Shown here: positions 10,514 to 63,073 of the stretch, in pieces
Layout of the letters: each line of letters begins with the position of its first letter
Numbering within the stretch: the stretch's first letter is position 1
Origin: Candidatus Sericytochromatia bacterium
GTDB taxonomy: Bacteria > Cyanobacteriota > Sericytochromatia > UBA7694
Assembly (NCBI GenBank): GCA_963797915.1
Contig: CAWCRG010000017.1
Span: 299,074 to 363,073 of the forward strand
DNA: 64,000 nt
Direction of reading: 5' to 3'
Made by a program: the position numbers and the translations under genes
Notes under the pieces: generated by a model
Told to the model about the DNA's origin: nothing
The model's input: only the letters and a program-made list of their open reading frames with translations
The model's database searches: none

Positions 10514-11204
10514 TTACCGAGATCTCAACGGGTTTTGGGCCTGCACACGGCACGGATTACCGTAGGCAATACTGTTGGCGGGAATATCCTTGGTGACCAC
10601 ACTGCCCATGCCAATCATGCAGTTTTCGCCAATGGTCACATGGTCCCGCACCGAAGCTCCTATCCCAATGCGCGTTCCTTTACCTATGCGTACAAAGCTC
10701 CCTAACATTACGCCTGGATTGAGGGTTACAAAGTCATCAAGAACACAGTGGTGGCCAATACTACAGTTGCTTCTAATATTGATGCCAAATTTTAGTGTGC
10801 TGCAGGCACCAACTGCGGTGAATCGCTCTATTTGAGCTCCAAAGTCCAGGCTTGCAGAGCGAGAAATGATGGCGGAAGGATGAATAAGTCGAGGAAACTG
10901 TTCGTTCGTAAGCTAACGGTAACAGTTTTTTAAAGGCCTGGTACACAATGGCCTTGACCGGGCTGTGGGCCATTGAAAACGCGAACTGTCCGCTCTGGGC
11001 CAATTTTTCTCGCTCTTCAGAGTTTAAGGTGCCGAGGGTATACACGTCGTGTTGCCAATTGGAGTGCGGTTGAAACTCTGCTCCAATGTTTACAGGAATA
11101 TTAAGTAAGATATTGAATTGAGTTATGTCCAGGGCCTCTTCGGCGAGCTCCATCAATGAGTTCAGTAATTTTGGCTCACAGCCGAGAATAGATAAAGAGT
11201 TCAT
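10514..11204 (-). pseudogene. Frameshifted tandem paralog of the NeuD/PglD-like hexapeptide acetyltransferase
   Basis: ORFs 10773..11204 and 10514..10708 together align along the full length of the intact 11386..12072 protein, with about 85% nucleotide identity in the aligned 3' region. The reading frame is lost near 10709-10772. Confidence 0.6.
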
Positions 11205-11385: not shown

Positions 11386-12072
11386 TTATAAAGTTCCCAG
11401 GGCATTTTGCCGCTGCACACGGCATGGATTACCGTAGGCAACACTATTGGCGGGAATATCTTTTGTGACCACACTGCCCATGCCAATCATGCAGTTTTCG
11501 CCAATGCTCACGTTATCTCGCACCACAGTACCTGCGCCAATACGTGTCCCTTTACCTACGTGTACAAAACTACTCAGGGTCACGCCGGGGTTGAGGGTTG
11601 AGAAGTCTTCCAGAATACAGTGGTGTCCCACGCTACTGCTTCTTTTGATATTGACACCAAAGCCCACCCTACTGCAGGCACTTATGGTCACGTTAGGATC
11701 AATGTGTACACCAAACCCGACGTTAGCAGAGCGAGACACCACAGCGGATGGGTGAATAAGTTGGGGAAATTGAGCGTGCTCCAAAGCAAAGACATTTTTA
11801 AAAGCCTCGTATAGAATGGTTTTGACCGGGTGGTGAGATACGGAAAAGGCAAACTGTCCCGCATTGCGCAGACGATCGATATGCTCTGGTGTCAGGGTCT
11901 CCAGGGTGTAAACACGGTGTTGCCAATGGGCGTGTGGTTGGAACTCTGCTCCTATTTTCACAGGAATATTCAGCAAAATGTCAAAGTGAGCCATGCCTTG
12001 AGCGTCCTCAGCCAGTTCCATAAGAACATTGAGTAGGCTTGGATCACAGCCGAGAATGGTTAACGGTTTCAT
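11386..12072 (-). CDS. Hexapeptide-repeat sugar N/O-acetyltransferase, NeuD/PglD-like
   Basis: C-terminal left-handed beta-helix repeats (VGKGTRIGAGTVVRDNVSIGENCMIGMGSVV) and an N-terminal Rossmann-like segment. Start overlaps the upstream stop. Confidence 0.6.
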   Translation of the reverse strand: MKPLTILGCDPSLLNVLMELAEDAQGMAHFDILLNIPVKIGAEFQPHAHWQHRVYTLETLTPEHIDRLRNAGQFAFSVSHHPVKTILYEAFKNVFALEHAQFPQLIHPSAVVSRSANVGFGVHIDPNVTISACSRVGFGVNIKRSSSVGHHCILEDFSTLNPGVTLSSFVHVGKGTRIGAGTVVRDNVSIGENCMIGMGSVVTKDIPANSVAYGNPCRVQRQNALGTL

Positions 12073-16629: not shown

Positions 16630-16709
16630 GCCTCACTTCACTTAAGAGAGAGTCAGGTAGCAGTTGAGCAATGAGCGTTTACGAAAAAGAGTGATAGGCT
16701 GTAATACAT

Positions 16710-18704
16710 ATGAGAATGAGCGTTTGGTTTTGTTTACTGGCTCTATATGCTGGGGTATGCACTTTTTCTATGCCATTTGCTTACGGATCCCCTTTTTTGA
16801 GAGATTCTATTGAACTCTATACAGCTCCTGTGGGCTCTCATTTGTCTATTCAGGATATTCGTCAGCTGCCGGACCACCATTGGCGTCCTTCAGATCTCAA
16901 TAAAAGCTTTGGGTTTATTCCTGGACAAGAGGCCTGGCTAAAGATCTCATTGACTGACCCTGGCGCGCAATCCCGCTATGTGGTGGTATACCGAGCCAAT
17001 TTAAAAGAGGTCTGTTTTTTCTCAAGGGGTCCTGCCTCCTGCTTTTCATCCGCTCAGCCCGTTGAGACCTTTCCGTTTTTACCTGCGGCGGAGCCCGTTT
17101 TCTCTCTGGGGAAGCTATGGTCTGGAGAGTCTGTCGTTTACGTCCGCGTTCGCAGTATAAATTACGTTACCGTACCTTTGGCCATTGTTTCTCAGTCGGA
17201 ATTAAGGGCTCAGTTTTTTCTGAAGCGACTATTGGACTTTAGCGCGATGGGCACTTTTTTTAGTCTGATTTTATTAAACCTGATATTGGCCTTGTGGTTG
17301 AAAAAAAATGTGTATGTTCTGCATGCGCTCGCTCTTCTCAGTTGGAGTGTTGCATGGTTCGGTATTCTGATGGGGTATAGCCGTTTTTTACCTTATCCCT
17401 TTCATGGTTTTGCGCTGGAACACATGCCGGTCTTTGCCTTAATGGCAGTGCTCTTTTCTTTACTGGCGTACCAGCTCTTTGCACATCATGAACTCAGTCA
17501 GAAAGTAAGGCGCTGCTTCTTCTTGCTTACCCTGCTTTTGACGTTGACGCTGTTGAGTTTGTCCTTGCCGTTTCCGTTACTGCATCTGTTGCTGGTGCGC
17601 TTATGGGCCTTAGGAACGTTGGCTTTGGTTGTGTCGGGCTTATTTTTGAGCCTGCGGCTAAAAAAGTACTGGTCCGCGTTTTATCTTTTGTGCTGGCTGG
17701 CTTTTTATGGCACCACTTTTGTGCTGATTTTACTTCAGTTTTCAGTGCTGCCCTTCACACTGCTGACCTATAGTTATTTTTCGTGGTTGCAGTGTTTGAG
17801 TATGCTGGCCTTGATTTTGATTCCACTACTGTCCGTAGAGAATCTTCAGCGCATTAAAGAGGTGTTAATGATGCGCAATCTCATGCTTGCCTTGGATCAG
17901 CAGCAAATTTTAGAAAAGCGGGTTGAAGAACGTACTCTGGCTTTGCAGGAGTCTGTGGCATTGCTGGAAGAAGCCAATGATAAATTGACCGTGCTAAATC
18001 GTTCCAAAGCCCGTCTTTTTGTGATCCTGGCCCATGATTTACGCACGCCTTTTTTGAGTATGCTATCGCTCTTGAAGGTGTTTGAGCGAGGGAAAATGAA
18101 TCAGGCCGGTTTTTTAGAGATGTTGCCGCGTTTAAAACGTCACCTTGAAAACGTTAGCGCTTCTTTAGACAATATGCTTACCTGGGTTAAAGCAGAACTA
18201 GAGGGTTATTCTCATCAGCGTCAATCGTTGTCTATAAAGCGTTTACTTGAGGAGGTTTATGGTGTGTATGAGGAGCCTGCACGACAAAAACAGGTGCATT
18301 TGAAAATGCGTGCTGTGGGTGCAGACTTACGGGTATGGGCAGATCGAAACCATGTGCGGCTGGTGTTACGCAATATTGTGGGTAACGCGTTGAAGTTCAC
18401 CCCGGTGGAAGGGACGATTGAAATCTGGGCTGAACGGGAAAGCGACACAGAGATCAGGATCACTGTTCAGGATACTGGAATGGGTTTTTCTGCGGCTGAC
18501 CTGGAGCGCTTTCAGGCCAGAGAGGCTTTAAATTCGCAGGCGGGAACCTCTGGTGAAAAGGGTTTGGGTCTTGGACTCCAGGCTTGTCAGGCTTATTTAG
18601 AAGTCAATCAGGGCAGCTTAAGTATTGCTTCTCTTTCTTCAGGAGCCAGCGTTCAATTTACGCTGCCCTGTGCTTCGGTTTACGATGAAGATATCCTGGA
18701 TTGA
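16710..18704 (+). CDS. Sensor histidine kinase with 7TMR-DISM and 7TM domains (tandem paralog)
   Basis: Collinear, roughly 70% identical to the upstream kinase, with the same domain order. Confidence 0.8.
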   Translation: MRMSVWFCLLALYAGVCTFSMPFAYGSPFLRDSIELYTAPVGSHLSIQDIRQLPDHHWRPSDLNKSFGFIPGQEAWLKISLTDPGAQSRYVVVYRANLKEVCFFSRGPASCFSSAQPVETFPFLPAAEPVFSLGKLWSGESVVYVRVRSINYVTVPLAIVSQSELRAQFFLKRLLDFSAMGTFFSLILLNLILALWLKKNVYVLHALALLSWSVAWFGILMGYSRFLPYPFHGFALEHMPVFALMAVLFSLLAYQLFAHHELSQKVRRCFFLLTLLLTLTLLSLSLPFPLLHLLLVRLWALGTLALVVSGLFLSLRLKKYWSAFYLLCWLAFYGTTFVLILLQFSVLPFTLLTYSYFSWLQCLSMLALILIPLLSVENLQRIKEVLMMRNLMLALDQQQILEKRVEERTLALQESVALLEEANDKLTVLNRSKARLFVILAHDLRTPFLSMLSLLKVFERGKMNQAGFLEMLPRLKRHLENVSASLDNMLTWVKAELEGYSHQRQSLSIKRLLEEVYGVYEEPARQKQVHLKMRAVGADLRVWADRNHVRLVLRNIVGNALKFTPVEGTIEIWAERESDTEIRITVQDTGMGFSAADLERFQAREALNSQAGTSGEKGLGLGLQACQAYLEVNQGSLSIASLSSGASVQFTLPCASVYDEDILD

Positions 18705-18771
18705 CCCTGTTCAGGTCTCTCGATCTATGTTCAACTGATATATATAGCATAAGCAAAAAAAGGAATACACT

Positions 18772-40798: not shown

Positions 40799-43304
40799 AT
40801 GTCAGATCAATCCAGAGAGCGGGATCTTGTATTGGCCCCCAATGAGTATGCCTTTATTTCGGATCAAACCAAAGGCAATATTAATGTGTATGTGGGCCCC
40901 TACAAAACCAGTTTGGCCAATACAGATCAGCCGGTGTTTTTTGATGAGCAGAGCAAACGCTTTGATCGCTGTGGCTTAGAGCAGGCCACGCGGGTTTTTG
41001 CCACCGCCCCTGAAGGATGGTATATCACCCTTAAAAACCCTGCCGGTGACCAAATGCAGCCTAAAAATGGCACGGTTAATAATTTGCCCGATCTGCAGGT
41101 GGGGCATAAGATTAATTTACCCGGACCGGTTTCTTTTGGCTTATGGCCCGGACAAATGGTGAGGGTACTTAAGGGGCATCACCTGCGCTCTAACCAGTAT
41201 TTACTGGTGCGCGTCTATGACGAAGCCTCAGCCCGCAGTAACTGGACACGGGCCGTGATGAAGCTTCAGGGCAATGTGCCCGAAGAGGGGCTGAATCTGA
41301 AAAGCGCTGCTGAAGAAACGTTAAATCTTGGACAGGAAATGGTGATTCGAGGCACCGAGGTTTCTTTTTATATTCCCCCGACCGGTATTGAAGTTGTTAC
41401 TGACAGGCAGGGCGGGTTGGTGAGAGAAGCGGTAACGTTGGAGCGACTTGAGTACTGCATTTTATTGGATGAAGACGGCAATAAACGCTATATTCAGGGG
41501 CCCGATGTGGTCTTTCCTGAGCCCACAGAACGTTTTGTGGAGCGGCAAGTGAGCGGTGTGCTCTGTAAAAAGTTTCGGGCTGTCGAACTCAATGAAAATA
41601 GCGGCATTTACGTGAAGGTGATTGCGCCCTATACGTCTTCTGACGGCGATAAAGTAACCCAGCATGGCGTGGGCGACGAACTGTTTATTACGGGTAAAGA
41701 TCAGATGATTTATTTTCCGCGCCCGGAACATGCGGTGATTAAGTATGGTGCCCAGGATATTCACTATGCGGTGGCCATTCCTGCGGGCGAAGGGCGTTAT
41801 GTGATGGAGCGTAACACCGGGCAGATTAGACTGGTAAAAGGGCCCCACCATGCTGCTGCCTGACCCCCGGCGAGAGGTCATGATACGGCGCGTACTGACC
41901 ACGCCCCAGGTGCGTCTGTGGTTTCCGGGCAATGCCGAAGCGATGGAGTATAATCACCAATTGCAGGAACTCTTAGCCGATGAAAAGGGAGCTTCGGTAT
42001 TGCCCCTTTCTGTACCCCTTGCGCCGACGGGTGGGCCTGCGGATGCAAAATCTCGCAGCGCTGCCAAATCCTCAAAAAGAGAAGTTACTCCCGCGTTGGC
42101 GGGTGAGGACTTTCATCGCAATACGCAGTATACGCCACCTCGGACCATTACCTTAAACACCAAGTATGATGGGGCGGTCGCGGTGTCCATCTGGACTGGC
42201 TACGCGGTGCTCGTGGTAAGTAAAACCGGAGAGCGTAAAGTCGTGGTGGGTCCACAAACCTACCTGCTGGCGTACGATGAAGCCCTGGAGCCCATGGCTT
42301 TATCTACGGGATCTCCCAAAAGCGAGTCTCAATTGCTTAAAACCGTTTACTTGCGGGTGTTGCACAATAAAATCTCCGATAAAATTCGTGTGGAAACGCG
42401 CGATCTGTGCGAGGTAGAGATTCAGCTTTCTTATCGGGTGAACTTTGAGGGCGATTCCCAATACTGGTTTAATGTGGAGAACTATGTCAAGTTTTTGACG
42501 GAGCATATGCGTTCTCGCATTCGCAACGCGGTCAAGCAGGTGGGTGTGGAAGCTTTTTATAGTCAGGCGGCTGATATCTTGCGCGATACCGTGCTGGGAG
42601 TCAGTGACGGACAACGGACCGGCTGCACCTTTGCTGAAAACGGCATGCGGGTGTATGACGTCGAGGTGCTCAATGTCACGCTGGTGGACCAAAGCGTGGA
42701 GCAATTGTTGATTGCCGCGCAACGGCAAGGGGTTGAGCAGACCTTGCAACTCAACGCCGAACGGCGCAAGCTGGACTTTGTGCAGGCTGAAGAGGTCGTC
42801 AAGCGAGAAATGTCTGAAGCCCGCATTCTCACGGAGACTCAGCATCATGATATAGAGCTTGAACGCTTACACCGTCAGCAGGCCTTACAATTGCAGCAGT
42901 TAAAAAGCCAAAGTGAAGCAGAACAAACCCGCCTGCTCGGCGAATTGGCCAATCAAGAGCAAATGAGTGCGGTGCATGAGGCTGAGTTAATGCGAGAGCG
43001 GGTGCGTTTAGAGCAGGAGTTGGCCATGGCTCACGAACGGACGCAGCAGCGTCTGATGCTGATGCAGGGTGAGGTAGAGGCGATGGCCCGCAAAGCAGAA
43101 GCCATTTCACCTGACCTGATTGCTGCTTTACAGGCTTTTGGCGATAAAGCGCTGGCGGAGCGCATGGCGGCATCGATGGGGCCACTCGCCATTCTCGGCG
43201 GCAATAGCGTGGCCGATGTCTTGTCCCAGCTGCTGGGCGGTACCCAGCTCGAACACCTTGTGCGCAAGGCGATGCCCCTCATGGGCCATATTACTGAAGA
43301 CTGA
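40799..43304 (+). CDS. Major vault protein (MVP) homolog, single gene with apparent frameshift near 41845-41865
   Basis: The N-terminus (LVLAPNEYAFISDQTKGNINVYVGPYKTSLANTDQPVFF) parallels the first MVP repeat of eukaryotic MVP ([38 protein letters not shown]). The C-terminal ORF parallels the MVP shoulder/cap-helix region (…VDQSVEQLLIAAQRQGVEQTLQLNAERRKL…). Combined length is about 835 aa. Confidence 0.6.
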
Positions 43305-43390
43305 AACCTCAGAGGCGTTGGGAATCGGGTATAATGGGTAGTCTTCATACATGATGTATGAAAAAGTATACACCACAGAACAGGTATCCC

Positions 43391-44325
43391 ATGACCGACG
43401 TCTCTCCCATTATCTCAATTACGAATTTATCCAAGGTCTACGCCTCAGGCTTTCAAGCCCTTAAAGCCGTGGACCTGGATATTCATCGCGGGGAGATTTT
43501 TGCGCTCCTCGGTCCCAATGGTGCGGGTAAAACCACCCTGATTAGTATTATTTGCGGCATTGTAAATGCTTCTACCGGTGAAGTGCTGGCCGATGGCCAC
43601 TCGGTATTTAAAGACTATCGACAAGCGCGTAGCAAGATCGGCCTGGTACCCCAGGAGCTTACCAACGATATGTTTGAAACGGTGTGGAATACGGTAAAGT
43701 TTAGCCGTGGGCTCTTTGGTAAAGCGCCCAATCCGGCCTTGCTCGAAGATATTTTGCGCCGTTTGTCACTGTGGGACAAAAAAGATCAGCAAATTCGCGC
43801 GCTTTGGGGGGCATGAAGCGACGGGTGATGATCGCCAAGGCGCTGTCTCATGAGCCCATGATTTTGTTTCTGGATGAACCCACTGCGGGTGTTGACGTGG
43901 ATTTGCGTAAAGATATGTGGGAAATGGTGCATCAGTTACGCAAAACCGGTGTCACGATTATTTTAACCACTCACTATATGAAGAAGCTCAGGAAATGGCT
44001 GACCGTATTGGTTTTATTCGCAGCGGTGAAGTCTTTTTAGTGGAAGAAGAAAAAGGCGCTGATGCAAAAATTAGGCAAAAAGCAATTGACGTTGCAATTG
44101 GCTGAACCCCTGTCAGAGATTCCAGCGACTTTACAAAGCCTGCCCCTTACGCTCTCCGAAAATCATATGCAGTTGGTATATACCTTTGATGCCCAAACGC
44201 AAAAAAAGGGCATTGCCTCGCTTTTACGGCAATTGTCCGATGAAGGCATTGATTTTCAAGATCTGTACACCAGTGAAAGCTCCCTCGAAGATATTTTTGT
44301 TAAATTGATTGGAACCTCAGTATGA
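43391..44325 (+). CDS. ABC transporter ATP-binding protein, broken into four frames (three frameshifts)
   Basis: Walker A (GPNGAGKTT), signature (LSGG-like at a G6 run), Walker B (ILFLDEPT) and H-loop (TTHY) are spread over ORFs 43358..43816, 43771..44040, 43917..44105 and 44062..44325. Confidence 0.6.
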
Positions 44326-44331
44326 ACCTTT

Positions 44332-45082
44332 ATGCGGTTAAGGCCATTTACGGCTTTGAATTGGCGCGCTTTTTTGCACCCTTTTTCAGAGCATTGCTTC
44401 CCCGGTGATTTCGACGTCGCTCTATTTTATTGTTTTTGGTTCGGCCATTGGTTCGCGTATGACCGATATCGAAGGCACGACTTATGCCGCTTTTATTGTG
44501 CCCGGTTTGATCATGCTATCGGTGCTGACAGAAAGTCTCTCTAACGCTTCTTTTGGTATTTATATGCCCAAGTATTCAGGAACAATCTATGAAATCCTCT
44601 CTGCACCCATTTCGGCCTTTGAAATTGTATTGGGTTATGTGGGCGCTGCGGCCAGTAAGTCGGTCATGCTTGGCTTTATTATCCTGGCCACCGCGCGCTT
44701 GTTTGTGGATTTTCAGATTATGCACCCGTTTTGGATGCTCGCCTTTTTACTACTGACCGCGCTGACCTTTAGCCTCTTTGGCTTTATTATTGGGGTGTGG
44801 GCAGATGGCTTTGAAAAACTGCAAATTATTCCCCTGATGGTGATTACCCCGCTGACCTTTTTGGGAGGAAGCTTTTACTCGATCAAAATGCTGCCCCCCT
44901 TTTGGCAAAAGGTCACGCTGTTTAATCCGATTGTGTACCTGATTAGTGGCTTTCGCTGGAGCTTTTACGGTGTGGCAGATGTGAGCATTGGACTCAGTCT
45001 TGGCATGACGGCGCTGTTTTTGTCAGTGTGTTTGGTACTGGTGTGGCTGATTTTTAAAACAGGGTATAAGATTAAAAATTAA
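44332..45082 (+). CDS. ABC-2 family permease, frameshift near 44365-44395
   Basis: The N-terminal [18 protein letters not shown]… is in one frame. The remainder (ORF 44405..45082) has six hydrophobic helices. T6 and T5 runs lie at the junction. Confidence 0.55.
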
Positions 45083-45224
45083 AGTGAGCTGACCAGATTG
45101 TGTTACAGCGGTGATTTAAGAGTGAAACCCTGTGAATTGGATTCGTCCGCTTTTATTTTATCTGGTGGGAAAGGAACCGTTGTGGTAAGCGGTAGCCCTG
45201 GAAACGACTTCACTGGTGAGGTGT

Positions 45225-46112
45225 TTAGAGGCTGCGTCGCATGAGTCCATTTAATTGTATAGAGTAATGGGCTTTAACATCCCGAGTCCCGATAAGGGCT
45301 AACCCTATATTTTCTAAGTCTACGGTGACTTGTAATTTGTCACTGGTTTGAACGGTTTTCCAAGCTTGTTTCATGCCTTCCGACCAAAGGATATCGTCAA
45401 AAATAAGTAGGCTATTGGTGTGTAAATAGGGAAGAAATTGTTCAAAGTAAGCCAGGGTGGCAGTATGGTCATGGTGACCATCAATAAATGCGAAATCAAT
45501 GGGCTGGTGGTTCTCCAGCAATGCAGGCAGACAATCCTGAAAACGTCCTTCAATCACGGTGGCATAATCAGAGAGCCCCAGATTTTCGAGGGTGGAACGG
45601 CTTTGCTTAGCCAATACGGGAGAGCCTTCCAGGGTGAAAACTTGGCCTTGTTGTGTTTGTTTTAAAGCGCTTGCCTGATATGCCGCTGAAATGCCGACAC
45701 AGCTTCCCAGTTCGATACTGATCCGGGGCTCAAATGTTTTGGTCAGGTGGTATAGTAAGCTGGCCCAAAATGCAGGTTTGCTCGCGCGAGCCAAAGTGGC
45801 CAGTGATATTTCTGTTTTTATGCCCTGATACATTTCTTCTGTTGTGCGTTGCTTTTCGGGGGAGCCTGCCCCATAATCGATGCTTTCAACGATTTGTGTG
45901 CTTTGGTGAAGTTGTTGGCGATGGGATTCAATGGCCCGTATTGCCAGGGTTTCTTTTGGAGATAAGCGCTGAAAAAAGGTGTCTTCAATGGCTTTTGCCA
46001 GGGCCTGTGTCTGAGGGTTTTTGCTGTGTTTCATTTCTTGTAGAGCGGGTGGAAGCTGAGTTAATGCCACTTGGCGAAGTGCTTTTTTTAATACCTGTTT
46101 TAGTTTGCTCAT
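45225..46112 (-). CDS. Class I SAM-dependent methyltransferase (O-methyltransferase family 3-like)
   Basis: Motif I-like IELGSCVGISAAY and FIDGHHDH are characteristic of CmcI/family-3 O-MTases. Confidence 0.65.
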   Translation of the reverse strand: MSKLKQVLKKALRQVALTQLPPALQEMKHSKNPQTQALAKAIEDTFFQRLSPKETLAIRAIESHRQQLHQSTQIVESIDYGAGSPEKQRTTEEMYQGIKTEISLATLARASKPAFWASLLYHLTKTFEPRISIELGSCVGISAAYQASALKQTQQGQVFTLEGSPVLAKQSRSTLENLGLSDYATVIEGRFQDCLPALLENHQPIDFAFIDGHHDHTATLAYFEQFLPYLHTNSLLIFDDILWSEGMKQAWKTVQTSDKLQVTVDLENIGLALIGTRDVKAHYSIQLNGLMRRSL

Positions 46113-46186
46113 TGCGCCACCTCAAAAATATAATAAGTCAGTATACAGGAGTCATGAAAAAAGTCACCAATCCCTTAGCAATCCGT

Positions 46187-46345
46187 GGCTTTGATCGACT
46201 TCTCTTAAAACGGCTAAAATCTTAAATGTGATGTCCTACAATGTTGATATCGATGATTTTTAGCTGACCGCGCATGTCTTCGTCGAGTACGGTACTAAAG
46301 ATAACGTTGGCGTCGGGGTTAACTGTGTTTTCAATGGCTTCATCA
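46187..46345 (-). pseudogene. 3' fragment of a diverged ftsZ-like paralog (last ~40 codons plus downstream sequence)
   Basis: About 75% nucleotide identity to 50768..50930. It translates to …DEDMRGQLKIIDINIVGHHI*, compared with …[20 protein letters not shown] in the intact gene. Confidence 0.55.
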
Positions 46346-46609
46346 GCTTTGGATAAACCCACTGCGGGTGTTGACGTGGATCTGCGTAAAGATATGTGAG
46401 AAATGGTGTGTCAGCTGTGTAAAACTGGCGTCACGATTATTTTAACCACTCACTATATCGAAGAAGCCCAGAAAATGGCTGACCATATTGGTTTTATTCG
46501 CAGCGGTGAAGTCTTTTTAGTCGAAGAGAAAAAGGCGCTGCTGACCTTTTGGGGGGAAGCTTTTACGGTGTGGCTGATTTTTAAAACCGGCTACAAAACT
46601 AAGAACTAG
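46346..46609 (+). pseudogene. Remnant of the ABC transporter operon (ATPase fragment fused to permease 3' tail)
   Basis: 46346-46545 matches 43870-44060 (…[35 protein letters not shown]…). 46546-46609 matches the permease tail at 44862-44880 and 45040-45082 ([10 protein letters not shown]). Confidence 0.6.
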
Positions 46610-46638
46610 GGTCTGGTCTTGTGGCCTGACCCCGCGCC

Positions 46639-47757
46639 CTAGTTTTGATCCCGAGCGATGCGCGACACTGAGATGTAGGCATTGGGTTTTGACTGGGCCT
46701 GCGCGCCTTTGAAGTTCTGACGGTGTTTAAAAACCGATTCAAACTCCGCAAAAGACACGCTGCTGGAATCATTGGGATTGTAGGGATCCGCCAATAGCAG
46801 GTTATTGTCTTTATCGATGCCTGTTAGCACAACATAATGGCCCGTGTTACCTATTTGATTGGGGTTATTGTCCATAAACTGAGTGAGCAGAATGACTGAG
46901 TTGCCCTGATTCAGCTCGTTTCGCATGCGTTCCAGCATATCGGTGGCGTTACGCATGCCGTCTTTTTTTTCTCGGTGCACTTCTGCTTCAAGCTTACCTT
47001 CCGAGAGTTTCTCTAGACTTTTAGCCATCGGCTCAGGATCGATGGCTCCTGAATTGCTCACACCCATCAGCTTTCGCATTTCGCCGATGCTCTCAATATT
47101 TCCGGCCAGGCCCTGTTCTTTTAGCACCATTAAGGTACTGGTGGGACCACAAGAGGAGCCTGCTTGTTTGTGTAGTCGCGCCTGTTCACCGCTCAGCCTT
47201 CCTGCCTTGGCGGCATCTTTATCCCGGTTATAGCTGCCTTCGCCGTATTTTTTATCGTAATCAGCAAATTGTTTTGTATGCCAATCTTTGTTTGCACCCG
47301 GCTTATAAAAGTCGACGCCCTTTGGATTAAACTTTCCCTGTGCGCGGGCCTGGGCTTCGTTTCGCTCCTGTGGCTCAAGCATCTGCAATGTAGACTGGCT
47401 TAGTTCTCGGGCCAGGGCCTGGTTTTTAACCTGACCTAACGCCTGACTCACTTGTGCATATTCTTTAGGCGAAAGCTTATGGTCTGAAAAAAGCTTTCCC
47501 GTGCGGGTCTTGTCTTCAATGCCTTGAATAAATCCAGCCAGCAGCTGTTTGTCTTCTGGGCTTAAGTTTTCCTGAGCAAGCAATTGCTGTAAATTTTTGC
47601 CCTCGTCTTTTTGCAAGTGTCTGTCCTGAGTTGCCTGCTGAAAGCTTGAGCTTAAACGGGGAGGAATGGTTGTCATGGGTGTTGACGATCTTTCTGAAGA
47701 TATTAAGGGTACGTAGGAATAAACAAAAAAGCGACTTGTCTCAGCTTGAAGATTCAA
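46639..47757 (-). CDS. Peptidase C39-like (papain-fold cysteine peptidase) domain protein
   Basis: The C-terminal domain has a candidate catalytic Cys (QAGSSCGPTSTLMVL) and His (GHYVVLTGID). The N-terminal ~190 aa are charged, low-complexity and coiled-coil-like. Confidence 0.5.
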   Translation of the reverse strand: MNLQAETSRFFVYSYVPLISSERSSTPMTTIPPRLSSSFQQATQDRHLQKDEGKNLQQLLAQENLSPEDKQLLAGFIQGIEDKTRTGKLFSDHKLSPKEYAQVSQALGQVKNQALARELSQSTLQMLEPQERNEAQARAQGKFNPKGVDFYKPGANKDWHTKQFADYDKKYGEGSYNRDKDAAKAGRLSGEQARLHKQAGSSCGPTSTLMVLKEQGLAGNIESIGEMRKLMGVSNSGAIDPEPMAKSLEKLSEGKLEAEVHREKKDGMRNATDMLERMRNELNQGNSVILLTQFMDNNPNQIGNTGHYVVLTGIDKDNNLLLADPYNPNDSSSVSFAEFESVFKHRQNFKGAQAQSKPNAYISVSRIARDQN

Positions 47758-47802
47758 GTCAAAACAAGCCGCTCAATCTACTGATTAAATAACGACGGGT
47801 TA

Positions 47803-48718
47803 CTAATCTATAATTTTTTTGCCGGGATAGATAGTGGCTCCTGGGGGAGGTGTTCCCTCAACGCCCATATTTCCTTTGTCGCCCATAGGAAAGTTAGGCT
47901 TTTGTCCTGGACTGGGCTTCGTTCCGATGGGTGCCTGGCCGGGTTTACCCGTGGGGAAATTGGGTTTATTACCCAGTTCAGGCTTGGGTTTTTGTCCGTC
48001 GTGAATGTGAGCGCCTTGAGGGGGCTTGCCTTCGGTACCCATTTGAGGTTGCGGCTTTTGTCCCTGGCTAATTTGTGCGTCTTTGGGAGGCTTGCCTTCG
48101 GTACCCATTTGAGGTTGCGGCTTTTGTCCCTGTGAATTTGTGCGTCTTGGGAGGTTTACCTTCGGTACCCATTTGAGGTTGTGGCTTTGTGGTAATTTGT
48201 GCGTCTTTGGGAGGCTTGCCTTCGGTACCCATTTGAGGTTGCGGCTTTTGTCCCTGGCTAATTTGTGCGTCTTTGGGAGGCTTGCCTTCGGTACCCATTT
48301 GAGGTTGCGGCTTTTGTCCCTGGCTAATTTGTGCGTCTTTGGGAGGCTTGCCTTCGGTACCCATTTGAGGTTGCGGCTTTTGTCCCTGGCTAATTTGTGC
48401 GTCTTTGGGAGGCTTGCCTTCGGTACCCATTTGAGGTTGCGGCTTTTGTCCCTGGCTAATTTGTGCGTCTTTGGGAGGTTTACCTTCGGTACCCATTGAA
48501 GGCTTGTCGGGAAATTTTTGAGGGGTTTTAAGACTATCACTTTTCACGGGGGTAGATTGAAGGGTGTCTTTCTGGTCAATGGCTGGCTTCTGTGCTTGAG
48601 TGATGTCCTCTTTTTTAATGTCTTTGTCTTTAACTTCTCCCTTTTTCCCGATAGGGAAGGCGTTTGCTGCGCTATTTACTGCTGAAGACAGAGGGCCGGT
48701 ACTCATACTCATACTCAT
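47803..48718 (-). CDS. Lys/Pro/Gln-rich tandem-repeat protein (22-aa repeats MGTEGKPPKDAQISQGQKPQPQ), frame broken within the repeat array
   Basis: ORFs 48068..48718 and 47803..48540 overlap in two frames. The frame changes at a 64-bp variant repeat copy (48100-48163). No signal peptide. Confidence 0.5.
48034..48520. repeat. 66-bp tandem repeat array (about 7.5 copies; one 64-bp and one 60-bp variant)
   Basis: The anchor ggtaccc recurs at 48034, 48100, 48164, 48224, 48290, 48356, 48422 and 48488. Confidence 0.85.
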
Positions 48719-49236
48719 GACATCCTTTGGATTTTTAATGGTTTTAATAAAATAATTTTGTAGGCACTTATCTACGAAGACTTTTTGAGAATAAATCTAA
48801 AGACAAACGTGAAAAGTAACGATTTAAAAAACAATATGCTTCTATTTTAACTTTTTTTTCGTGAACTCTTGCGGAATTTAATCAATTATTAAGATATTTT
48901 AATCAAGCTTAGCTTTCTGCTGACGGTATTTTCTTGAAGGTCTCTTTGGGGCGTGTCCTATCGTTTACACGACGACATTTCAATTTAGAATTCTATTTTG
49001 CATCCAGCACATGCTCTAAGAGGCCGTCCCATTGCCAGGACTGCATGGGAGTATACTCAGCCCCAAGACCAATGGCACCGTTGAATATACCGGAGTTGTT
49101 GACTTCATTGCGTCTGTTGACCGTAACTTCTGTGTCACCTTGATCATCATGGCGCTGGTTCACAAAAACATTTTTATGCCTTTTGACCTTATCATTCTAA
49201 ACCACTTTGCAAACAAGGCCGATTTTTTCTTGACAA

Positions 49237-49839
49237 ATGAATATTTATTCATTTAATATAATGTGTATGAAAAGCAAAGACCCCGAAAAAATTAAAGCGA
49301 TACATTGCGCCACCCTCAAGCTCGCCAGTGACAAAGGTCTCAGTGGCGTTACGATGTCAGGGGTGGCCAAAGCTTCAGGCATGGCTACCGGTACACTGTA
49401 TATTTATTTTGAGAGTAAAGCAGCACTGTTGAACCATTTGTATCAAACCTTGAAGCAGGAGCGAGACGTGTATCTGCAACCGCAATTTGTGGAAGGTCCG
49501 GTAAAAAAACGTCTGCAACTGCTGTTTAACGAATCCATCATTTATCGTTTTGTGAATTATGAAGCCGCGGCTTTTATGGAGCAGTTTTATTACACTGCCG
49601 ATTATGACGCTACCAGCCGCGCGCTTTCAGAACAAATTATGCAGGGTCTTTGGCGTCTGTTTGAGGTGGGCAAGCAAGAGGGTATTATTAAACCGCTGGA
49701 TAACCGGCTATTATTGACCCTGGTATCAGGCTTTATGAAAGAAATTGTGCTGCAATGTAAAGCCCAGGGCACAAATCCTGAAGCGGGCGATCTATTGAGT
49801 CAGAGCTTTGATCTATGCTGGGATGCTTTAAAGGCTTAA
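49237..49839 (+). CDS. TetR/AcrR family transcriptional regulator
   Basis: N-terminal HTH (SGVTMSGVAKASGMATGTLYIYFESKAALL); 200 aa. Confidence 0.7.
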   Translation: MNIYSFNIMCMKSKDPEKIKAIHCATLKLASDKGLSGVTMSGVAKASGMATGTLYIYFESKAALLNHLYQTLKQERDVYLQPQFVEGPVKKRLQLLFNESIIYRFVNYEAAAFMEQFYYTADYDATSRALSEQIMQGLWRLFEVGKQEGIIKPLDNRLLLTLVSGFMKEIVLQCKAQGTNPEAGDLLSQSFDLCWDALKA

Positions 49840-49902
49840 CAGGCCAATCAACGAAAAATTTTTAAATTAAAAATGAATATTTATTCATAAAAAAGAAGGT
49901 GT

Positions 49903-50718
49903 ATGATGACGAAGCGTATTTTAATTACCGGGGCCAGTTCAGGCATTGGCGAAGGCACAGCACATTATTTTGCAGCCCAGGGCTGGCAAGTGATAGCCAC
50001 CATGCGCAATCCAGAAGCGGAACCGTTTGATCACGAAAATATTCGCACACTGGCGCTCGATGTGACCGATAAAACGAGTATTCAAAATGCCGTGGCCTTT
50101 GTCAAAGCGGAGTACGGGGGATTAGACGTGGTTCTCAATAATGCAGGTTATGGTGCGGCAGGGCCTTTAGAAGCCGCTACAGACGCACAAATCAAGCGAC
50201 AGTTTGATGTAAATCTCTTTGGCGTGATTGATATAACGCGGGCTTTTCTGCCGATGTTTAGAGCCCAAAAGTCAGGCCTGTTCATTAACATTTCTTCGAT
50301 TGGGGGTTTAATTACGATGCCCATGTTTTCGCTTTATCATGCCACCAAATGGGGGATTGAAGGCTTTAGTGAGAGCTTACGCTATGAACTCAACGGCCTG
50401 GGGATTCAGGTGAAAATTGTGGAGCCGGGTGGTGTGAAAACGGATTTTTCAGGCCGCTCATTGGATATGTTTGATGTCGGTGAACACGCAGATTATCGAC
50501 CCTTTGTGGAGCGTATGCTCGCTAATTTTACACCCGATCGTCAGGCGGCTTACTCTACTGCTGAAGATATGGCCAAAGTGATTTTTACAGCGGCCACCGA
50601 CAACTCAGATCAAATGCGTTATGTGGCGGGTCCTGATGCCCAGGCCCTATGGGAGCGGCGTCAAGCTGTTCCTGTAGAGACCTTTATGAGCGAAATGCGC
50701 CACAATATGTTGGGTTAA
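49903..50718 (+). CDS. Short-chain dehydrogenase/reductase (SDR) family oxidoreductase
   Basis: TGASSGIG cofactor motif, NNAG, and catalytic YxxxK (YHATK). Confidence 0.8.
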   Translation: MMTKRILITGASSGIGEGTAHYFAAQGWQVIATMRNPEAEPFDHENIRTLALDVTDKTSIQNAVAFVKAEYGGLDVVLNNAGYGAAGPLEAATDAQIKRQFDVNLFGVIDITRAFLPMFRAQKSGLFINISSIGGLITMPMFSLYHATKWGIEGFSESLRYELNGLGIQVKIVEPGGVKTDFSGRSLDMFDVGEHADYRPFVERMLANFTPDRQAAYSTAEDMAKVIFTAATDNSDQMRYVAGPDAQALWERRQAVPVETFMSEMRHNMLG

Positions 50719-50802
50719 CGCTTAAAGGGAAAGCCGCTGGACTTGAGCAAATGCTCTGGAGTCTAGCGGCTTTGATGGGCTCATCTTAAAACGGTTAAGA
50801 TC

Positions 50803-51744
50803 TTAAAGGTGACGGCCCACAATGGCGATGACGGTCACTTTCACCTGATCGCGCATGTCTTCGTCGAGTACGGTGCCAAAAATAACGTTGGCATCGGGGT
50901 TGACCGTATTGTAAATGACTTCGGCGGCTTCGTTAATTTCATGGAGCGAAACATCCTGGCCGCTGGTGATGTTAAAGACCACACCGGTGGCGCCGTCAAT
51001 GGAGTATTCCAGCAGTGGGTTCTCGATGGCTTTTTTGACAGCGTCTACAGCGGGATTTTCCACGTCCATAGAGCTGACGCCCACACCCATGACACCCACA
51101 CCGGCGTCGCTCATAATGGCGCGCACATCAGCAAAATCGACGTTGATCAGGCCGGGGATGTTAATAATGTCAGAAATGCCCTGAATGGCGAGCAATAAAA
51201 CATTGTCGACTTCTTGAAACGCATTTTTGACGGCCAGGCCGCCTTTCATGCTCTGTAATAAGCGATCGTTAGATACCACAATCAGGGTATCTACAGCGTT
51301 CAGCATGCGTTGAATGCCAGCATCGGCCTGTTCTTTACGGCGCTTGCCTTCAAACATAAATGGGCGGGTCACAACGCCTACGGTCAGTGCGCCCATGGAC
51401 TTTGCCATTTCAGCGAGAGCCGGGCCTGCGCCGGTACCGGTACCACCACCCATACCGCAGGTGACAAAAACCATGTCGGTGTCTTGCAAGTAGTGGCTGA
51501 GTTCTTCGCGACTTTCTTCGAGGGCCTTCATGCCCACTTCGGGGTTTCCGCCGGCGCCGAGGCCGCGGGTGCTTTTGCCGCCAATTTGAATGCGTTCCTG
51601 AGCGTCGACCATTGAAAGGGCCTGGGCATCGGTGTTGACAGCAATAAACTCGACCCCTTCAAAGGCGGCAGCGCGCATATGATTAATCGTATTTCCGCCG
51701 CTGCCGCCAACGCCGAAAACTTTAATGCTAACCAGTGGTGTCAT
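50803..51744 (-). CDS. FtsZ paralog comprising only the core GTPase and C-terminal domains (no linker or C-terminal tail)
   Basis: FGVGGSGGN, tubulin signature [12 protein letters not shown] and T7 loop NVDFADV. 313 aa ending …VIAIVGRHL, with 85 bp to the next gene. Confidence 0.8.
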
Positions 51745-58461: not shown

Positions 58462-61200
58462 TTGATCTGTTTTAAACATTCCGCGTATGCGTTCGTGTTG
58501 TTCTGTTTCGTTCTGGCTGGCTGTCAGCCGCCAACACAACACAACACAACACAACACAACACAACACAACCTTCTCTTTTAAGCTCGATCCCTCAAATAC
58601 GGTTTTCTAAAGATCGTGTGGCCAATCGCAAAGCCATTATGGAGCATATTCGCTCCACTCAGCCCTTTAGCAACCCCATTGGCCCCGATAGTAATATTTA
58701 TCAAGAGTACTTAAAATACCGTTCCGGTGATTTTAATGTGAAATATTCCTGGGGGCCTGACAGCTATACCGGCGAATTTACCTCTAGAGGTTGTCGCATG
58801 AGCTTTGAGGACGATCCCACTGTCTATCGTGATTATTGGAGTATCCCTTATCACCGTCGCTGTCAAGTGCGCGAGACGGCGAGTGGTGATTGGGGAGTAA
58901 TTGCCGCCTGTGACAGCATTAAAGGATATGAAGGCAGTGGTTACCCCATTTACGATGTGCGCTTAACCTGTAGCAAAAACGCGGGGGGTAGCTGTGCGCT
59001 CTTTAACTTTGCCGCTTCTTTTCACACCTGCGAAACCACTGACGATGACGGTAACTCGGGCTGCTTTGCCCCGCTTAAAAACTCAGATGGTACATCGGTG
59101 CTAGATGCTGGAGGCTCACCGGTTTTGACGCAAGTGGCTTGTGACGGTGACGGTGACAATGAACCGACGGATCCCGATAATACCCCCGTTTTATTTGCGA
59201 TTAGAAATCGCAATCCCGTTTACGGCATGGTGCCCGGAGATGAAGATAATCAGCGGGGGAGTGTCTCACCCGCTGATCAAAACGGCGCTTATGACGCTGT
59301 TGACTTAGACGTCATTGACGATCGCAACGTGGGTTGGTTTTTAAGTGTTGATTTTAATGACCAAGAACTGCTGCGTGTTAATGGCACCGGCTCTCAATCT
59401 AGCATTGACTGGAACCCGAATAATCTGGCCATCTCTGATAATGGCATGGCCCGTATTGCTTTGATTCACGCGGTGACCCAGCGGGTCTTTAATTACAAGG
59501 TAAGGGTAGACAATGATCCTCCGGTGATTAGCGATGTGAGCGTGATGCCGACACAAAATGCTGATGTGGGAATCATTCGCGCTAAGGTTTTAGAGCGTAA
59601 CACAAGAAATTATCAGACTGGGATCAACGAGAGTCGTTTTCAGGTGCATTTCGATTCAGAGGCTCAGCAGCTTCTGGCACCCAGCGTCTCTTTTGACAGC
59701 GAAACGGGCGAGTTTAGTGCTGAATTCAGTGGTTACAGTGCCTATCATAGTGGGCAACAGGGCAGCCCCGAAAGTGAGTTTGGTTTTGAGCTGATCGCCG
59801 AAGACTATGTGGGCAACACGGCCTCTAGCCGCCCGCCCAAAGACAATCTCAAGCTTTCGATCCCCGACAACACTTGGTTCTCGCCCCACGAAGACAGCAC
59901 CAAAAAACAGGTAAGCTTTGACGTGCTGGATGTGGACAACACCGGAGCCAGCTGGACCGTTGAAATTCGCAAAAACGGCCAGGTGTACAAAACCTACACT
60001 GGATCCGGCAGCCAAACCCTGAGCTGGGACGGCCTGTTTGAGGGCGCTGCTGTGTCCGAAGGCAAGTACAATATCGTGCTGAAGAACGCGAAGCAGCCGG
60101 GGAGGGAGCGCGAGCGGGATTTTGCGCAGGTGGGTGTGGATATGAGCCCGCCGGAGATCACTTATCAATTACTAAAAACTTCTCAAGACGATCCCACTAA
60201 AGCCAAAATTAAAATTACTGCTCACGATCCCCAAACTGGTGTAAAAGAGCTGACCTTAAATCAAGTTGCTCAAAATATAATTCCTGGAGTTCCTATTATT
60301 CAGGAGTTGGAAACAGAAACGATTCTGGAAAAGAAATATATTGCAATCTATAACATAATTTATCCCACATTCACTCCTACAGAAAACAGTTTTAAAATAA
60401 CCAATACTCCATCTGACTCCATTGATGATCTACTTGATTATTTAGACAAAACACAAGTACTGGGGGAAGTCACTTCTAGGAGTAACATAAATATCCAGTC
60501 TTCTAAACCGATTACTTATAAAGGCTTAAGACCCTTAAAGTGTCAATCATATAAAGCCAACGGTACTTCAGGAAAAAGTCAATTTGAGCTAAGCTTAATG
60601 TATGATTTCGATCCTGAAGGTCCTGATTTGACTGCTATTATTTTACCTACTCAGAGCAACTATCAACCATTGGGACCTGGAGATGTAATGACGAGTGTTA
60701 TAGATGTTCCTGGTGTGAGCTCCGGTACAAATCTCAAATTGCAATTCCCTTTTTCGCAACAAAAGCAAGCAAAAATAAATGAAAAAAGAAATGCTGCAAA
60801 CGCCTTGTTTACGGAAACGAAAATTCTTAGATCTCAAGGGAAAGTAGCAAATGCTTTAGGGAAAGAAAATAGAGCAAACCTCTTGTCTGTAGATGCTCAA
60901 GTTTTAATTAATCTTGCGAACGATGAAGTAATAAGATTTGACCAAGCTACTAATGCTGCTTATTTGACTAATAGAGGTGTTTCATATAATCAAATGTACA
61001 ACCAGTATTTGTCTAATAGTCCAACTTTAGCCAGAGTTATGTCAGATATGTCTAAGTTTAAGCTGTCTTCCAATTTAAAGCTTAACAATAAAGGCTACGC
61101 TCAGTTGTTATTTTCAGGAATAAATTTGGATAGAATAAGAGACTCGCTTCAAGGTAGTGGTTCAGGCTCTTTTGAGAATTACTATAAGAAATGGTGGTGA
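58462..61200 (+). CDS. Large modular surface/secreted lipoprotein (912 aa) with a GC-typical body and an AT-rich C-terminal region
   Basis: Lipobox FVLAGC at residues 16-21. An AACAC repeat lies immediately after the lipobox Cys. Asp/Gly-rich calcium-binding-like segments. A ~105-bp block at 60056-60160 is repeated downstream. GC drops sharply after about 60165. Confidence 0.6.
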   Translation: MICFKHSAYAFVLFCFVLAGCQPPTQHNTTQHNTTQPSLLSSIPQIRFSKDRVANRKAIMEHIRSTQPFSNPIGPDSNIYQEYLKYRSGDFNVKYSWGPDSYTGEFTSRGCRMSFEDDPTVYRDYWSIPYHRRCQVRETASGDWGVIAACDSIKGYEGSGYPIYDVRLTCSKNAGGSCALFNFAASFHTCETTDDDGNSGCFAPLKNSDGTSVLDAGGSPVLTQVACDGDGDNEPTDPDNTPVLFAIRNRNPVYGMVPGDEDNQRGSVSPADQNGAYDAVDLDVIDDRNVGWFLSVDFNDQELLRVNGTGSQSSIDWNPNNLAISDNGMARIALIHAVTQRVFNYKVRVDNDPPVISDVSVMPTQNADVGIIRAKVLERNTRNYQTGINESRFQVHFDSEAQQLLAPSVSFDSETGEFSAEFSGYSAYHSGQQGSPESEFGFELIAEDYVGNTASSRPPKDNLKLSIPDNTWFSPHEDSTKKQVSFDVLDVDNTGASWTVEIRKNGQVYKTYTGSGSQTLSWDGLFEGAAVSEGKYNIVLKNAKQPGRERERDFAQVGVDMSPPEITYQLLKTSQDDPTKAKIKITAHDPQTGVKELTLNQVAQNIIPGVPIIQELETETILEKKYIAIYNIIYPTFTPTENSFKITNTPSDSIDDLLDYLDKTQVLGEVTSRSNINIQSSKPITYKGLRPLKCQSYKANGTSGKSQFELSLMYDFDPEGPDLTAIILPTQSNYQPLGPGDVMTSVIDVPGVSSGTNLKLQFPFSQQKQAKINEKRNAANALFTETKILRSQGKVANALGKENRANLLSVDAQVLINLANDEVIRFDQATNAAYLTNRGVSYNQMYNQYLSNSPTLARVMSDMSKFKLSSNLKLNNKGYAQLLFSGINLDRIRDSLQGSGSGSFENYYKKWW
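58533..58570 (+). repeat. Pentanucleotide microsatellite (AACAC)x7.6 inside the 5' coding region
   Basis: Read directly: aacac aacac aacac aacac aacac aacac aacac aac, encoding (QHNTT)n just after the lipoprotein signal peptide. Confidence 0.9.
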
Positions 61201-61989: not shown

Positions 61990-62177
61990 CGCCAACGAAG
62001 AAGCGTTCAGTGTGTAAAACTACACGGTCGCAGCCAAATCCTGAGCTGGGACGGCTGCAAGGACAACTGTACCCGAAGGCAAGTACAACATCGTGCTGAA
62101 GAACGCAAAGCAGCCGGGCAAAGAGCGGGAGCGGGATTTTGCGCAGGTGGGTGTGGATATGAGCCCGCCGGAGATCA
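61990..62177 (+). repeat. Homology block duplicated from the main lipoprotein gene, a candidate recombination junction
   Basis: 62073-62177 is about 93% identical to 60056-60160 (…ccgaaggcaagtacaa…gagcccgccggagatca). Degenerate similarity extends upstream to about 61995 versus 59975. A 5-nt length difference upstream breaks the frame. Confidence 0.8.
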
Positions 62178-63073
62178 GTTACGAGATTGTGCGAACGGCC
62201 TCGGGTCGCAACACGGGCCAGTTAAAGATCGTGGTGACAGACAAGCAGTCGGGTGTTGATGCTGCTGCGACGGTGGCTACAAATGCCAGCGGTCAAATTC
62301 AGCCTGGGGTGCCGGTGATTCAGCAGGTGTTAACGGACAAGGAGAAAGTGGAACCCAAGCGCCAGGTGCGTTTTTATCAGCTGCTGTTTCCTGACTTTTT
62401 ACCCACAGAGACGCAGGCGGGTGGGGGTGATTTTCGGGTGGCGGCGGAAGGGGAAGCCCCTGCGGAGGCTGGCGTGGTTAACTTTGGTTCTGGACAAGTT
62501 CGCGATAATGTAGGGATCCCGTTTCAAATCGCTTACTCTTCACCTACCAATCCTTCGGAAATCGAAATAAAAAATCCTGGCAAATGCGTTTCTGGAAACG
62601 GAACTTTTAAAATTCATAAAATATACGATTTCGATTCTAGAACGGTCAAAAATGACGGCTCTGTAGATGAACGACCGGATCTTACGCTTGTTATTTTACC
62701 CAGTACGAATACCCCACAAGCACGAAAAGCAACAAATTTGGCTAAGCATTGTTTGCAATGTAATGCGCAAATTACGTCCACTCCGATTACCACAAACTTG
62801 AATAGCAATGAGTCTTACTCAGTTAGTACCATATACGATCCCAAAACAGGATTAGGGGGTGTGGCTCCAAACTTCCCGGAGGCTAAACCCATAACTTATC
62901 AAGTTGAGAACAGACAGGGAACAGCAAATTTATTAATTCAATCTGCTTGCAAAGGTAACTTGGGTTGCGCAGAAGGGTTAAAGCGAGATGAGTCTTCTTT
63001 TTACGTAGGAAGCAAAAATATTTTAGCTGGACTTGGACCATCGGCACAAGAAAATATTAGGCGGACTTCCTAA
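62093..63073 (+). CDS. Silent/orphan alternative C-terminal cassette homologous to residues ~545-900 of the large lipoprotein
   Basis: The translation begins inside the shared block (LKNAKQPGKERERDFAQVGVDMSPPEISY versus LKNAKQPGRERERDFAQVGVDMSPPEITY). It then parallels the main gene at about 35% identity (GVPVIQQV versus GVPIIQEL; RPDLTLVILPSTN versus GPDLTAIILPTQSN). It has only an internal GTG start and no RBS or lipoprotein N-terminus. Confidence 0.5.
   Translation: MLKNAKQPGKERERDFAQVGVDMSPPEISYEIVRTASGRNTGQLKIVVTDKQSGVDAAATVATNASGQIQPGVPVIQQVLTDKEKVEPKRQVRFYQLLFPDFLPTETQAGGGDFRVAAEGEAPAEAGVVNFGSGQVRDNVGIPFQIAYSSPTNPSEIEIKNPGKCVSGNGTFKIHKIYDFDSRTVKNDGSVDERPDLTLVILPSTNTPQARKATNLAKHCLQCNAQITSTPITTNLNSNESYSVSTIYDPKTGLGGVAPNFPEAKPITYQVENRQGTANLLIQSACKGNLGCAEGLKRDESSFYVGSKNILAGLGPSAQENIRRTS

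Follow-up and report, generated by a model that had tools for sequence, protein, structure and literature searches.

The locus described here lies in a 64,000-nucleotide window, the whole stretch of DNA that was analysed, from a genome of the Candidatus Sericytochromatia lineage. The clade shares a gene order in which a gene for an MVP-shoulder/SPFH protein (MVP-like), an ABC ATPase gene and an ABC-2 permease gene, all on the plus strand, are followed by a slot of variable content and then by an FtsZ-like gene on the minus strand. The slot of the window holds genes for a methyltransferase, a C39-like peptidase, a repeat protein, a TetR regulator and an SDR protein. Between the methyltransferase and C39 genes, searching the whole window by blastn, with 46101-46700 as the query, revealed a patchwork of about 460 bp (46152-46609), made up of leftovers of the FtsZ-like, ABC ATPase and permease genes (Table 1).

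Table 1. Genes, gene fragments and repeats at the locus, in window coordinates.
Feature	Position	Strand	Remarks
ABC ATPase start	43358-43816	+	Pfam
Long ABC ATPase copy (source-like)	43391-44325	+	Frameshifts about 43803, 43979 and 44049
Long ABC-2 permease copy	44322-45082	+	Frameshift about 44375
ABC-2 permease ORF	44405-45082	+	Pfam
Proximal permease tail	45040-45082	+	Direct-repeat partner of 46567-46609
Class I SAM-dependent methyltransferase	45225-46112	-	Pfam Methyltransf_24
Decayed copy of terminator and downstream region of FtsZ-like gene	46152-46221	-	Aligns with 50733-50802 and, in L004, with sequence downstream of the FtsZ-like gene
FtsZ-like 3' fragment	46222-46349	-	Last 42 codons plus stop; matches 50803-50930
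Internal ABC ATPase fragment	46350-46540	+	Walker B to H-loop region; about 91% identical to 43871-44061; in-frame TGA at 46397-46399
Internal permease piece	46541-46566	+	From about 44852-44878; joined to the ABC piece beside a common CGCTGA hexamer
Second permease piece	46558-46574	+	From about 44960-44976; overlaps its neighbours via direct repeats AGCTTTTAC and GGTGTGGC
Distal permease tail and stop codon	46567-46609	+	Partner of 45040-45082; adjoins the C39 gene stop (46639)
C39-like peptidase	46639-47757	-	Pfam
TetR	49237-49839		Pfam
SDR	49903-50718		Pfam
FtsZ-like gene with terminator hairpin (source-like copy of the scar's left part)	50733-51744	-	CDS 50803-51744, 313 aa; Pfam Tubulin and FtsZ_C

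Two further features of the locus can be recorded here. The FtsZ-like protein is short, with no C-terminal linker or tail, and its gene is extremely constrained, sharing 98% amino acid but 78% nucleotide identity with a more distant relative (L004); its next-closest proteins in the genome collection come from Patescibacteria (50-54%) and DPANN archaea (43-45%). Upstream of the C39 gene, a 66-bp tandem repeat (48023-48497, 7.3 copies, 93% matches) lies in or beside a 216-aa ORF without a Pfam hit, and both the repeat region and the length of the ORF vary among relatives (159, 191 and 222 aa).

The sequence-only reading of this DNA had taken the ABC operon to be intact. Alignment with the related loci L052 and L050 instead revealed five 1-bp indels, one in the MVP-like gene (41840), three in the ATPase gene and one in the permease gene, so that the ABC-2 transporter and MVP-like genes, three adjacent syntenic genes spanning 40799-45082, are all disrupted in this sequence and their annotation is to be corrected. 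The MVP-like gene is a single ORF of 828-834 aa in relatives, and an ATPase of 311-322 aa and a permease of 253 aa are intact in L046-L048, L050 and L052, while the ATPase of L049 is called as two ORFs (155 and 156 aa). The deposited genome annotates truncated products of 141 aa (ATPase) and 225 aa. Divergence from L052 at second codon positions is still 0-0.4% in the frameshifted genes, and the permease proteins of the two are identical. Because this substitution pattern remains strongly purifying, the frameshifts are either very recent disruptions or consensus errors. Homopolymer runs lie next to four of the five sites. All five fall within 3.6 kb, whereas the 8.6 kb over which the window is comparable with L001 has no frameshift, and this clustering favours real decay of a co-functional module. 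The cluster members found for the frameshift-corrected ATPase were the window's own truncated products and the alleles of relatives, although clustering at 90% identity would hide an intact identical protein.

Within the window, the left part of the patchwork (46187-46349) matches 50768-50930 without gaps over 163 bp (E=6e-37). The sequence-only reading had placed this match correctly, but its identity is 79.8% and not about 75%. The adjoining 46350-46543 matches 43871-44064 in the ATPase gene (90.8% over 195 bp, 2 gaps, E=8e-73). Three shorter matches to the permease gene follow, 46540-46566 to 44851-44878 (93%, E=6e-5), 46558-46578 to 44960-44980 (95%) and 46567-46608 to 45040-45081 (83%, E=1e-6). 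Every match is in the plus orientation, and a repeat search and a whole-window self-blast return the same fragment pairs. The earlier description of an ATPase interior that abuts the FtsZ-like piece and is fused to permease pieces is therefore borne out by the self-comparison it had called for. As the FtsZ-like gene is on the minus strand and the ABC genes are on the plus strand, their truncated 5' ends meet head-to-head at 46349/46350, again as first described. Homology on the FtsZ-like side takes in the terminator region of the gene and, when L004 is the comparator, reaches left to about 46152. In all, the scar covers 42 of the 313 FtsZ-like codons and about 64 of the 311 ATPase codons.

The joints between these pieces have 0-9 nt of microhomology. 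At the first joint (46349/46350), FtsZ-like ...GGCTT is followed by ABC TGGATAAACCC..., and the parent sequences have only TT(C) in common. At the second (46540/46541), ABC ...AAGGCGCTG meets permease CTGACCTTTTGG, with CGCTGA present in both parents. The permease part fits exactly as 44852-44878 plus 44960-44976 plus 45040-45082, with the switches falling inside direct repeats, namely the 9-nt AGCTTTTAC (at 44870 and 44960) and the 8-nt GGTGTGGC (at 44969 and 45040). Switches of this kind are the signature of two slippage-type deletions in a permease copy.

A structure so composite could in principle be a metagenome assembly chimera of co-occurring strains. The window is indeed part of a metagenome-assembled genome, public data include related strains whose slot contents differ, and 1-bp homopolymer discrepancies occur between assemblies. 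Against this, the few nucleotides shared at the joints are far below assembler k-mer sizes, and the pieces differ by 9-20% from all copies sampled, with private changes that are seen in no relative. In addition, the independently assembled Logan contig L053 (ERR12040027) covers 45031-46515 with no mismatches and a single 1-bp indel, reproducing the order of methyltransferase, FtsZ fragment and ABC fragment as well as the 46349/46350 joint. A chimeric origin thus appears extremely unlikely. The indel in L053 is one G fewer in the G-run at window position 45858, which splits the methyltransferase into ORFs of 97 and 202 aa; such discrepancies therefore occur between assemblies of this population.

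We then consider the condition of the fragments. The translated FtsZ-like fragment has 13 of its 42 residues replaced, in a stretch where the functional proteins of the window, L001, L006, L046, L049 and L050 are all identical. At the nucleotide level it has 19 private changes in 126 sites (states found in no functional copy), spread over the three codon positions as 7/7/5. The ABC fragment has 10 private changes in 194 sites (5/1/4), and its in-frame TGA stands where Trp is expected. In neither fragment are changes concentrated at third codon positions, as they would be under purifying selection. The terminator hairpin of the functional FtsZ-like copy is strong (-28.8 kcal/mol, z=-5.9), as is its counterpart in L004 (z=-2.8), whereas the copy in the scar folds no better than shuffled sequence (z=-0.5). 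Given the even codon spread, the replaced residues, the stop codon in the ABC piece and the degenerate hairpin, both pieces are truncated copies that have decayed neutrally, the FtsZ-like one ever since it arose. The earlier claims that both translations stay open, and that the fragments derive from once-functional paralogues, do not hold for these sequences.

The alternative that the mosaic gained a function, either by supplying the methyltransferase gene with its promoter or 5' region or by encoding a chimeric ABC/permease-tail peptide of 68 aa (46403-46609), takes its appeal from position and reading frame. With only 40 bp between the methyltransferase start (46112) and the scar, scar DNA forms part of the region upstream of the gene, where promoter-like hexamers occur at 46127-46167, and the 68-aa ORF reads in frame into the permease stop. 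The promoter-like matches do not exceed shuffle expectation, and they fall in the part that L045 has in common with the window, outside the fragments; Rfam gave no hit, the remnant of the terminator has degenerated and changes have accumulated at all codon positions. The ORF is open mainly because it is built of in-frame coding pieces, and it has no exact match in the protein collection and is absent from all relatives compared. A gained function is accordingly very unlikely. An RNA element was also considered and rejected, the sole candidate being a sub-threshold PhrS hit outside the scar. In short, the mosaic is a non-functional, ordinary recombination scar, and taken alone it matters little, since recombination leaves neutral by-products of this sort in many bacterial genomes.

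More can be learned from the same locus in related strains. In six loci (L046-L050 and L052) the permease stop lies within 16 bp of the C39 stop or overlaps it. Of these relatives, L052 (Logan) shares 95-99% nucleotide identity with the window in the MVP-like gene, and its C39 gene abuts an intact permease, as does that of L048 (Logan; C39 85% identical at the amino acid level); both contigs end before the FtsZ-like gene. Among the ENA loci (C39 85%), L046 and L047 have C39 and a 191-aa ORF, and the slot of L049 has only C39 called. The JGI locus L050 (C39 86%) has C39, three repeat proteins, TetR and SDR, with the FtsZ-like gene downstream. As L050 continues in the gene order of the window, the block from 46.6 to 50.7 kb is ancestral for the clade and not an insertion. 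The sequence-only reading had proposed an inserted block of 45.2-50.7 kb; with the permease abutting C39 in the six relatives, only about 45040-46566 is extra, and the annotation of the inserted DNA shrinks from a 5.5-kb block to a 1.5-kb methyltransferase segment. Neither did the synteny comparison it had suggested yield an empty junction, since the C39-to-SDR block is present in L050 and the slot of L004 holds other genes.

We see at least four slot contents overall: a MacB-type ABC ATPase with an FtsX permease and a CrtC/lipocalin protein (L004, 10955-15463); C39 with the 191-aa ORF (L046, 8582-10304); C39 with repeat proteins, TetR and SDR (L050, 3964-9797); and the methyltransferase. In L051, an AHSA1-domain gene is found beside C39. 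The sequences around the slot are also mosaic at the strain level, which shows homologous exchange to be frequent at the locus. The ATPase gene (43250-44290) is only 81-89% identical to that of L052, with 39% of third positions differing, against 95-99% for the flanking MVP-like gene; here one allele has been replaced by another through homologous recombination between strains. Likewise, the C39 genes of the window and the otherwise close L052 share only 71% identity. A clean recombination breakpoint between the window and L050 was suspected in the permease gene, but wider profiles show a general mosaic. We therefore flag the interval from the permease gene to the FtsZ-like gene as a variable slot that exchanges content among Sericytochromatia strains.

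The DNA specific to the window, 45040-46566 (1527 bp), comprises the methyltransferase gene and the mosaic and is flanked by the 43-bp permease-tail repeat. The methyltransferase gene is absent from L046-L052 in the locus comparison, and the scar is absent from L046-L050 and L052. The only close homologue of the methyltransferase (91% amino acid identity) is in the Logan locus L045 (SRR27362799), where the gene lies 21 bp from an intact permease. L045 parts from the window just past a terminator-like element (about 46163-46190). We had considered whether L045 runs on beyond the methyltransferase into an FtsZ fragment, and rejected this, as similarity ends at about 46190. No methyltransferase-type slot ending in an FtsZ-like gene was observed among the loci compared, the L045 contig ending soon after the methyltransferase. 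A scan of JGI metagenome contigs with the methyltransferase protein and another scan with the 24-nt joint sequence gave no hit; these scans returned no donor genome with the full structure and, apart from L053, no second strain with the joint. Searches for proteins exactly matching the methyltransferase, truncated ATPase, TetR or C39 products of the window gave no match.

A mobile element (IS, transposon or integrative island) was rejected as the source of this segment. Pfam searches of the ORFs of 40.8-51.7 kb gave only methyltransferase, C39, TetR, SDR, ABC and FtsZ domains, with no transposase, integrase or recombinase. There are no tRNA genes in the window and no terminal inverted repeats around 45040-46609, and the 43-bp repeat, 83% identical and part of a longer collinear gene homology, is not a short target-site duplication.

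The two permease tails that flank the segment carry different alleles. The distal tail matches the L052 tail at 40 of 43 positions and the window's own proximal tail at 35 of 42. It probably represents the resident allele, still beside the C39 gene stop as in relatives. The proximal tail follows a stretch identical to L052, and its last ~30 bp switch to L045-like states, sharing ACAGGG...AAGATTAAAAA...TAA with this methyltransferase-bearing locus. This assignment of alleles draws on fewer than ten informative sites.

The two sides of the FtsZ/ABC joint differ in decay. Private changes amount to 15% on the FtsZ-like side (19/126) and 5.2% on the ABC side (10/194; Fisher p=0.0045). The ABC fragment has 11 of the 14 derived sites of the window's long ATPase copy, to which it is sister. 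The FtsZ-like fragment has one of five sites derived in its own lineage and resembles L046 and L050 slightly more than it does the gene in the window. As a baseline for dating we used third-position divergence in flanking genes, which is 7-14% between the window and L001 or L052, or ~4-7% per branch. Set against this baseline, the private changes and shared derived sites of the ABC fragment fit an origin no earlier than the split from the L052 lineage, where the scar is absent. The roughly threefold greater decay of the FtsZ fragment may mean that it was a decaying remnant already attached to an arriving methyltransferase cassette, or that the ABC piece was gene-converted by the long copy 2.3 kb away.

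Unequal decay bears directly on the simpler histories. One-step serial template switching (MMBIR/FoSTeS type) that accompanied the insertion of the methyltransferase and copied stretches of the FtsZ-like 3' end, the ATPase and the permease would give four collinear short segments joined at microhomologies of 0-9 nt. It also predicts equal divergence, whereas we find identities of ~80% and 91%, and private changes of 15% and 5%, on the two sides. The distal permease tail, moreover, sits at its ancestral position beside C39, a better fit to a full-length copy that was later whittled down. Template switching is in our view improbable.

An intragenomic tandem duplication of 43871-50930 in an ancestor with a C39-type slot fares somewhat better, while still being doubtful. 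Under this scenario the first copy would have lost C39 through SDR, with the methyltransferase gained separately, and the second copy would have lost most of its ABC and permease genes. The topology of the joint, the sister relationship of the ABC fragment to the long copy in the window and the deletions at direct repeats all agree with it. It requires, however, an additional, independent methyltransferase gain at exactly the deleted spot, and it leaves unexplained both the contrast between an L045-type proximal and an L052-type distal permease tail and the ~3-fold higher decay of the FtsZ piece.

The best explanation, and one that we consider probable, is that two versions of the slot, one of the methyltransferase type and one of the C39 type, were stacked by an illegitimate, duplication-type join, and that repeat-mediated deletion and neutral drift followed. 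This sequence is favoured because the two slot contents differ, the alleles of the two permease tails differ, and the locus is mosaic at strain level. The ancestral slot of the window's lineage would have held C39, repeat protein, TetR and SDR genes, the stops of the permease and C39 genes lying a few bases apart. Through an illegitimate event, a point 128 bp inside the FtsZ-like 3' end would then have been joined to the interior of the ABC ATPase gene. The resulting joint, 50930/43871 with both segments in plus orientation, has the topology expected if the ABC-to-FtsZ interval had been duplicated in tandem or closed into a circle. A second slot version, consisting of the methyltransferase, its own permease tail and the FtsZ terminator, would thereby have been placed upstream of the resident slot, possibly by homology-facilitated illegitimate recombination (a mechanism summarised in PMC6382021), with a related strain as the source of the DNA. 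The downstream copy of the ABC and permease genes would have been 5'-truncated, promoterless and redundant, and may have been whittled to about 260 bp by deletions at AGCTTTTAC, at GGTGTGGC and at a site beside the CGCTGA hexamer, after which all pieces of the scar would have drifted neutrally. The general proposal that the locus arose by past duplication and deletion, in a recombinationally active region, agrees with the earlier description. Sequence comparison shows the homologies and joints, the neutral decay of the pieces, the lack of the scar in relatives and the limits of the extra segment; from these we infer the order of events, and likewise a related strain as the origin of the DNA on the methyltransferase side.

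Unequal decay is not what one event with equal neutral drift thereafter would produce, so stacking requires either an older, imported FtsZ fragment or gene conversion. The first option leads to a more specific suggestion, which we offer tentatively and regard as less likely than its negation: the scar may be the footprint of duplicative homology-facilitated illegitimate recombination between co-existing strains, in which the methyltransferase cassette brought along an FtsZ fragment that had decayed beforehand. If true, the sequence would give direct evidence that transformation-like gene flow and the stacking of cassettes occur in an uncultured, non-photosynthetic relative of the cyanobacteria. 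In any event, the scar may serve as a small datable record of how the slot was rebuilt, by an illegitimate joint and then by deletions at 8-9-nt repeats.

Other duplications occur elsewhere in the window. Tandem paralogues of a hexapeptide-repeat acyltransferase (10533-11204 and 11386-12072) are 72% identical in nucleotide sequence, and the downstream copy is frameshifted after about 95 codons. Another tandem pair (14737-16633 and 16818-18708) consists of paralogous genes of about 670 aa, 77% identical over 1.9 kb. Finally, a 157-bp segment at 60008-60164 is 86% identical to 62030-62181; the pair links a 912-aa ORF (58462-61200) and a 326-aa ORF (62093-63073), both without a Pfam hit, and the frame is broken just upstream of the 62030-62181 copy, which marks a partial duplication.

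The scar can be compared with several known systems. Spontaneous tandem duplications in Salmonella and E. coli form novel joints by illegitimate recombination at short or no homology. The joint in the window resembles these in that the end of a segment (50930) is joined to its own start (43871) without a change of orientation, the two sharing 2-3 nt of microhomology, and in that the redundant copy was later lost by deletion. It differs in the interiors of the two copies (methyltransferase as against C39, repeat protein, TetR and SDR), where collinear identical copies would be expected, and in the unequal ages of the sides of the joint, although gene conversion could mask an equal age. These two differences make simple tandem duplication insufficient.

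Homology-facilitated illegitimate recombination offers a further parallel. One side of the segment lies in homologous permease DNA, where fewer than ten informative sites point to a possible allele switch, and the other is an illegitimate joint with 0-6 nt of microhomology, comparable to the 3-10 nt typical of such joints: TT(C) where FtsZ meets ABC, and the CGCTGA hexamer beside the junction of ABC and permease. The cargo gene, too, is otherwise seen only in a related strain. Unlike the usual outcome of that process, the product here is duplicative and not a replacement.

The slot as a whole recalls the flexible islands of cyanobacterial and other populations, in that L004, L045, L046, L050 and the window differ in content between conserved flanks. 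It is unlike them in having no integrase, tRNA or mobile-element hallmarks, and in carrying two slot versions side by side. The closest likeness for the scar itself is with gene remnants produced by deletional decay between short direct repeats (replication slippage). Its permease deletion endpoints coincide exactly with the 9-nt AGCTTTTAC and the 8-nt GGTGTGGC, and it shows neutral substitution and an in-frame stop, with no essential difference from such remnants; it is to this class that the scar belongs.
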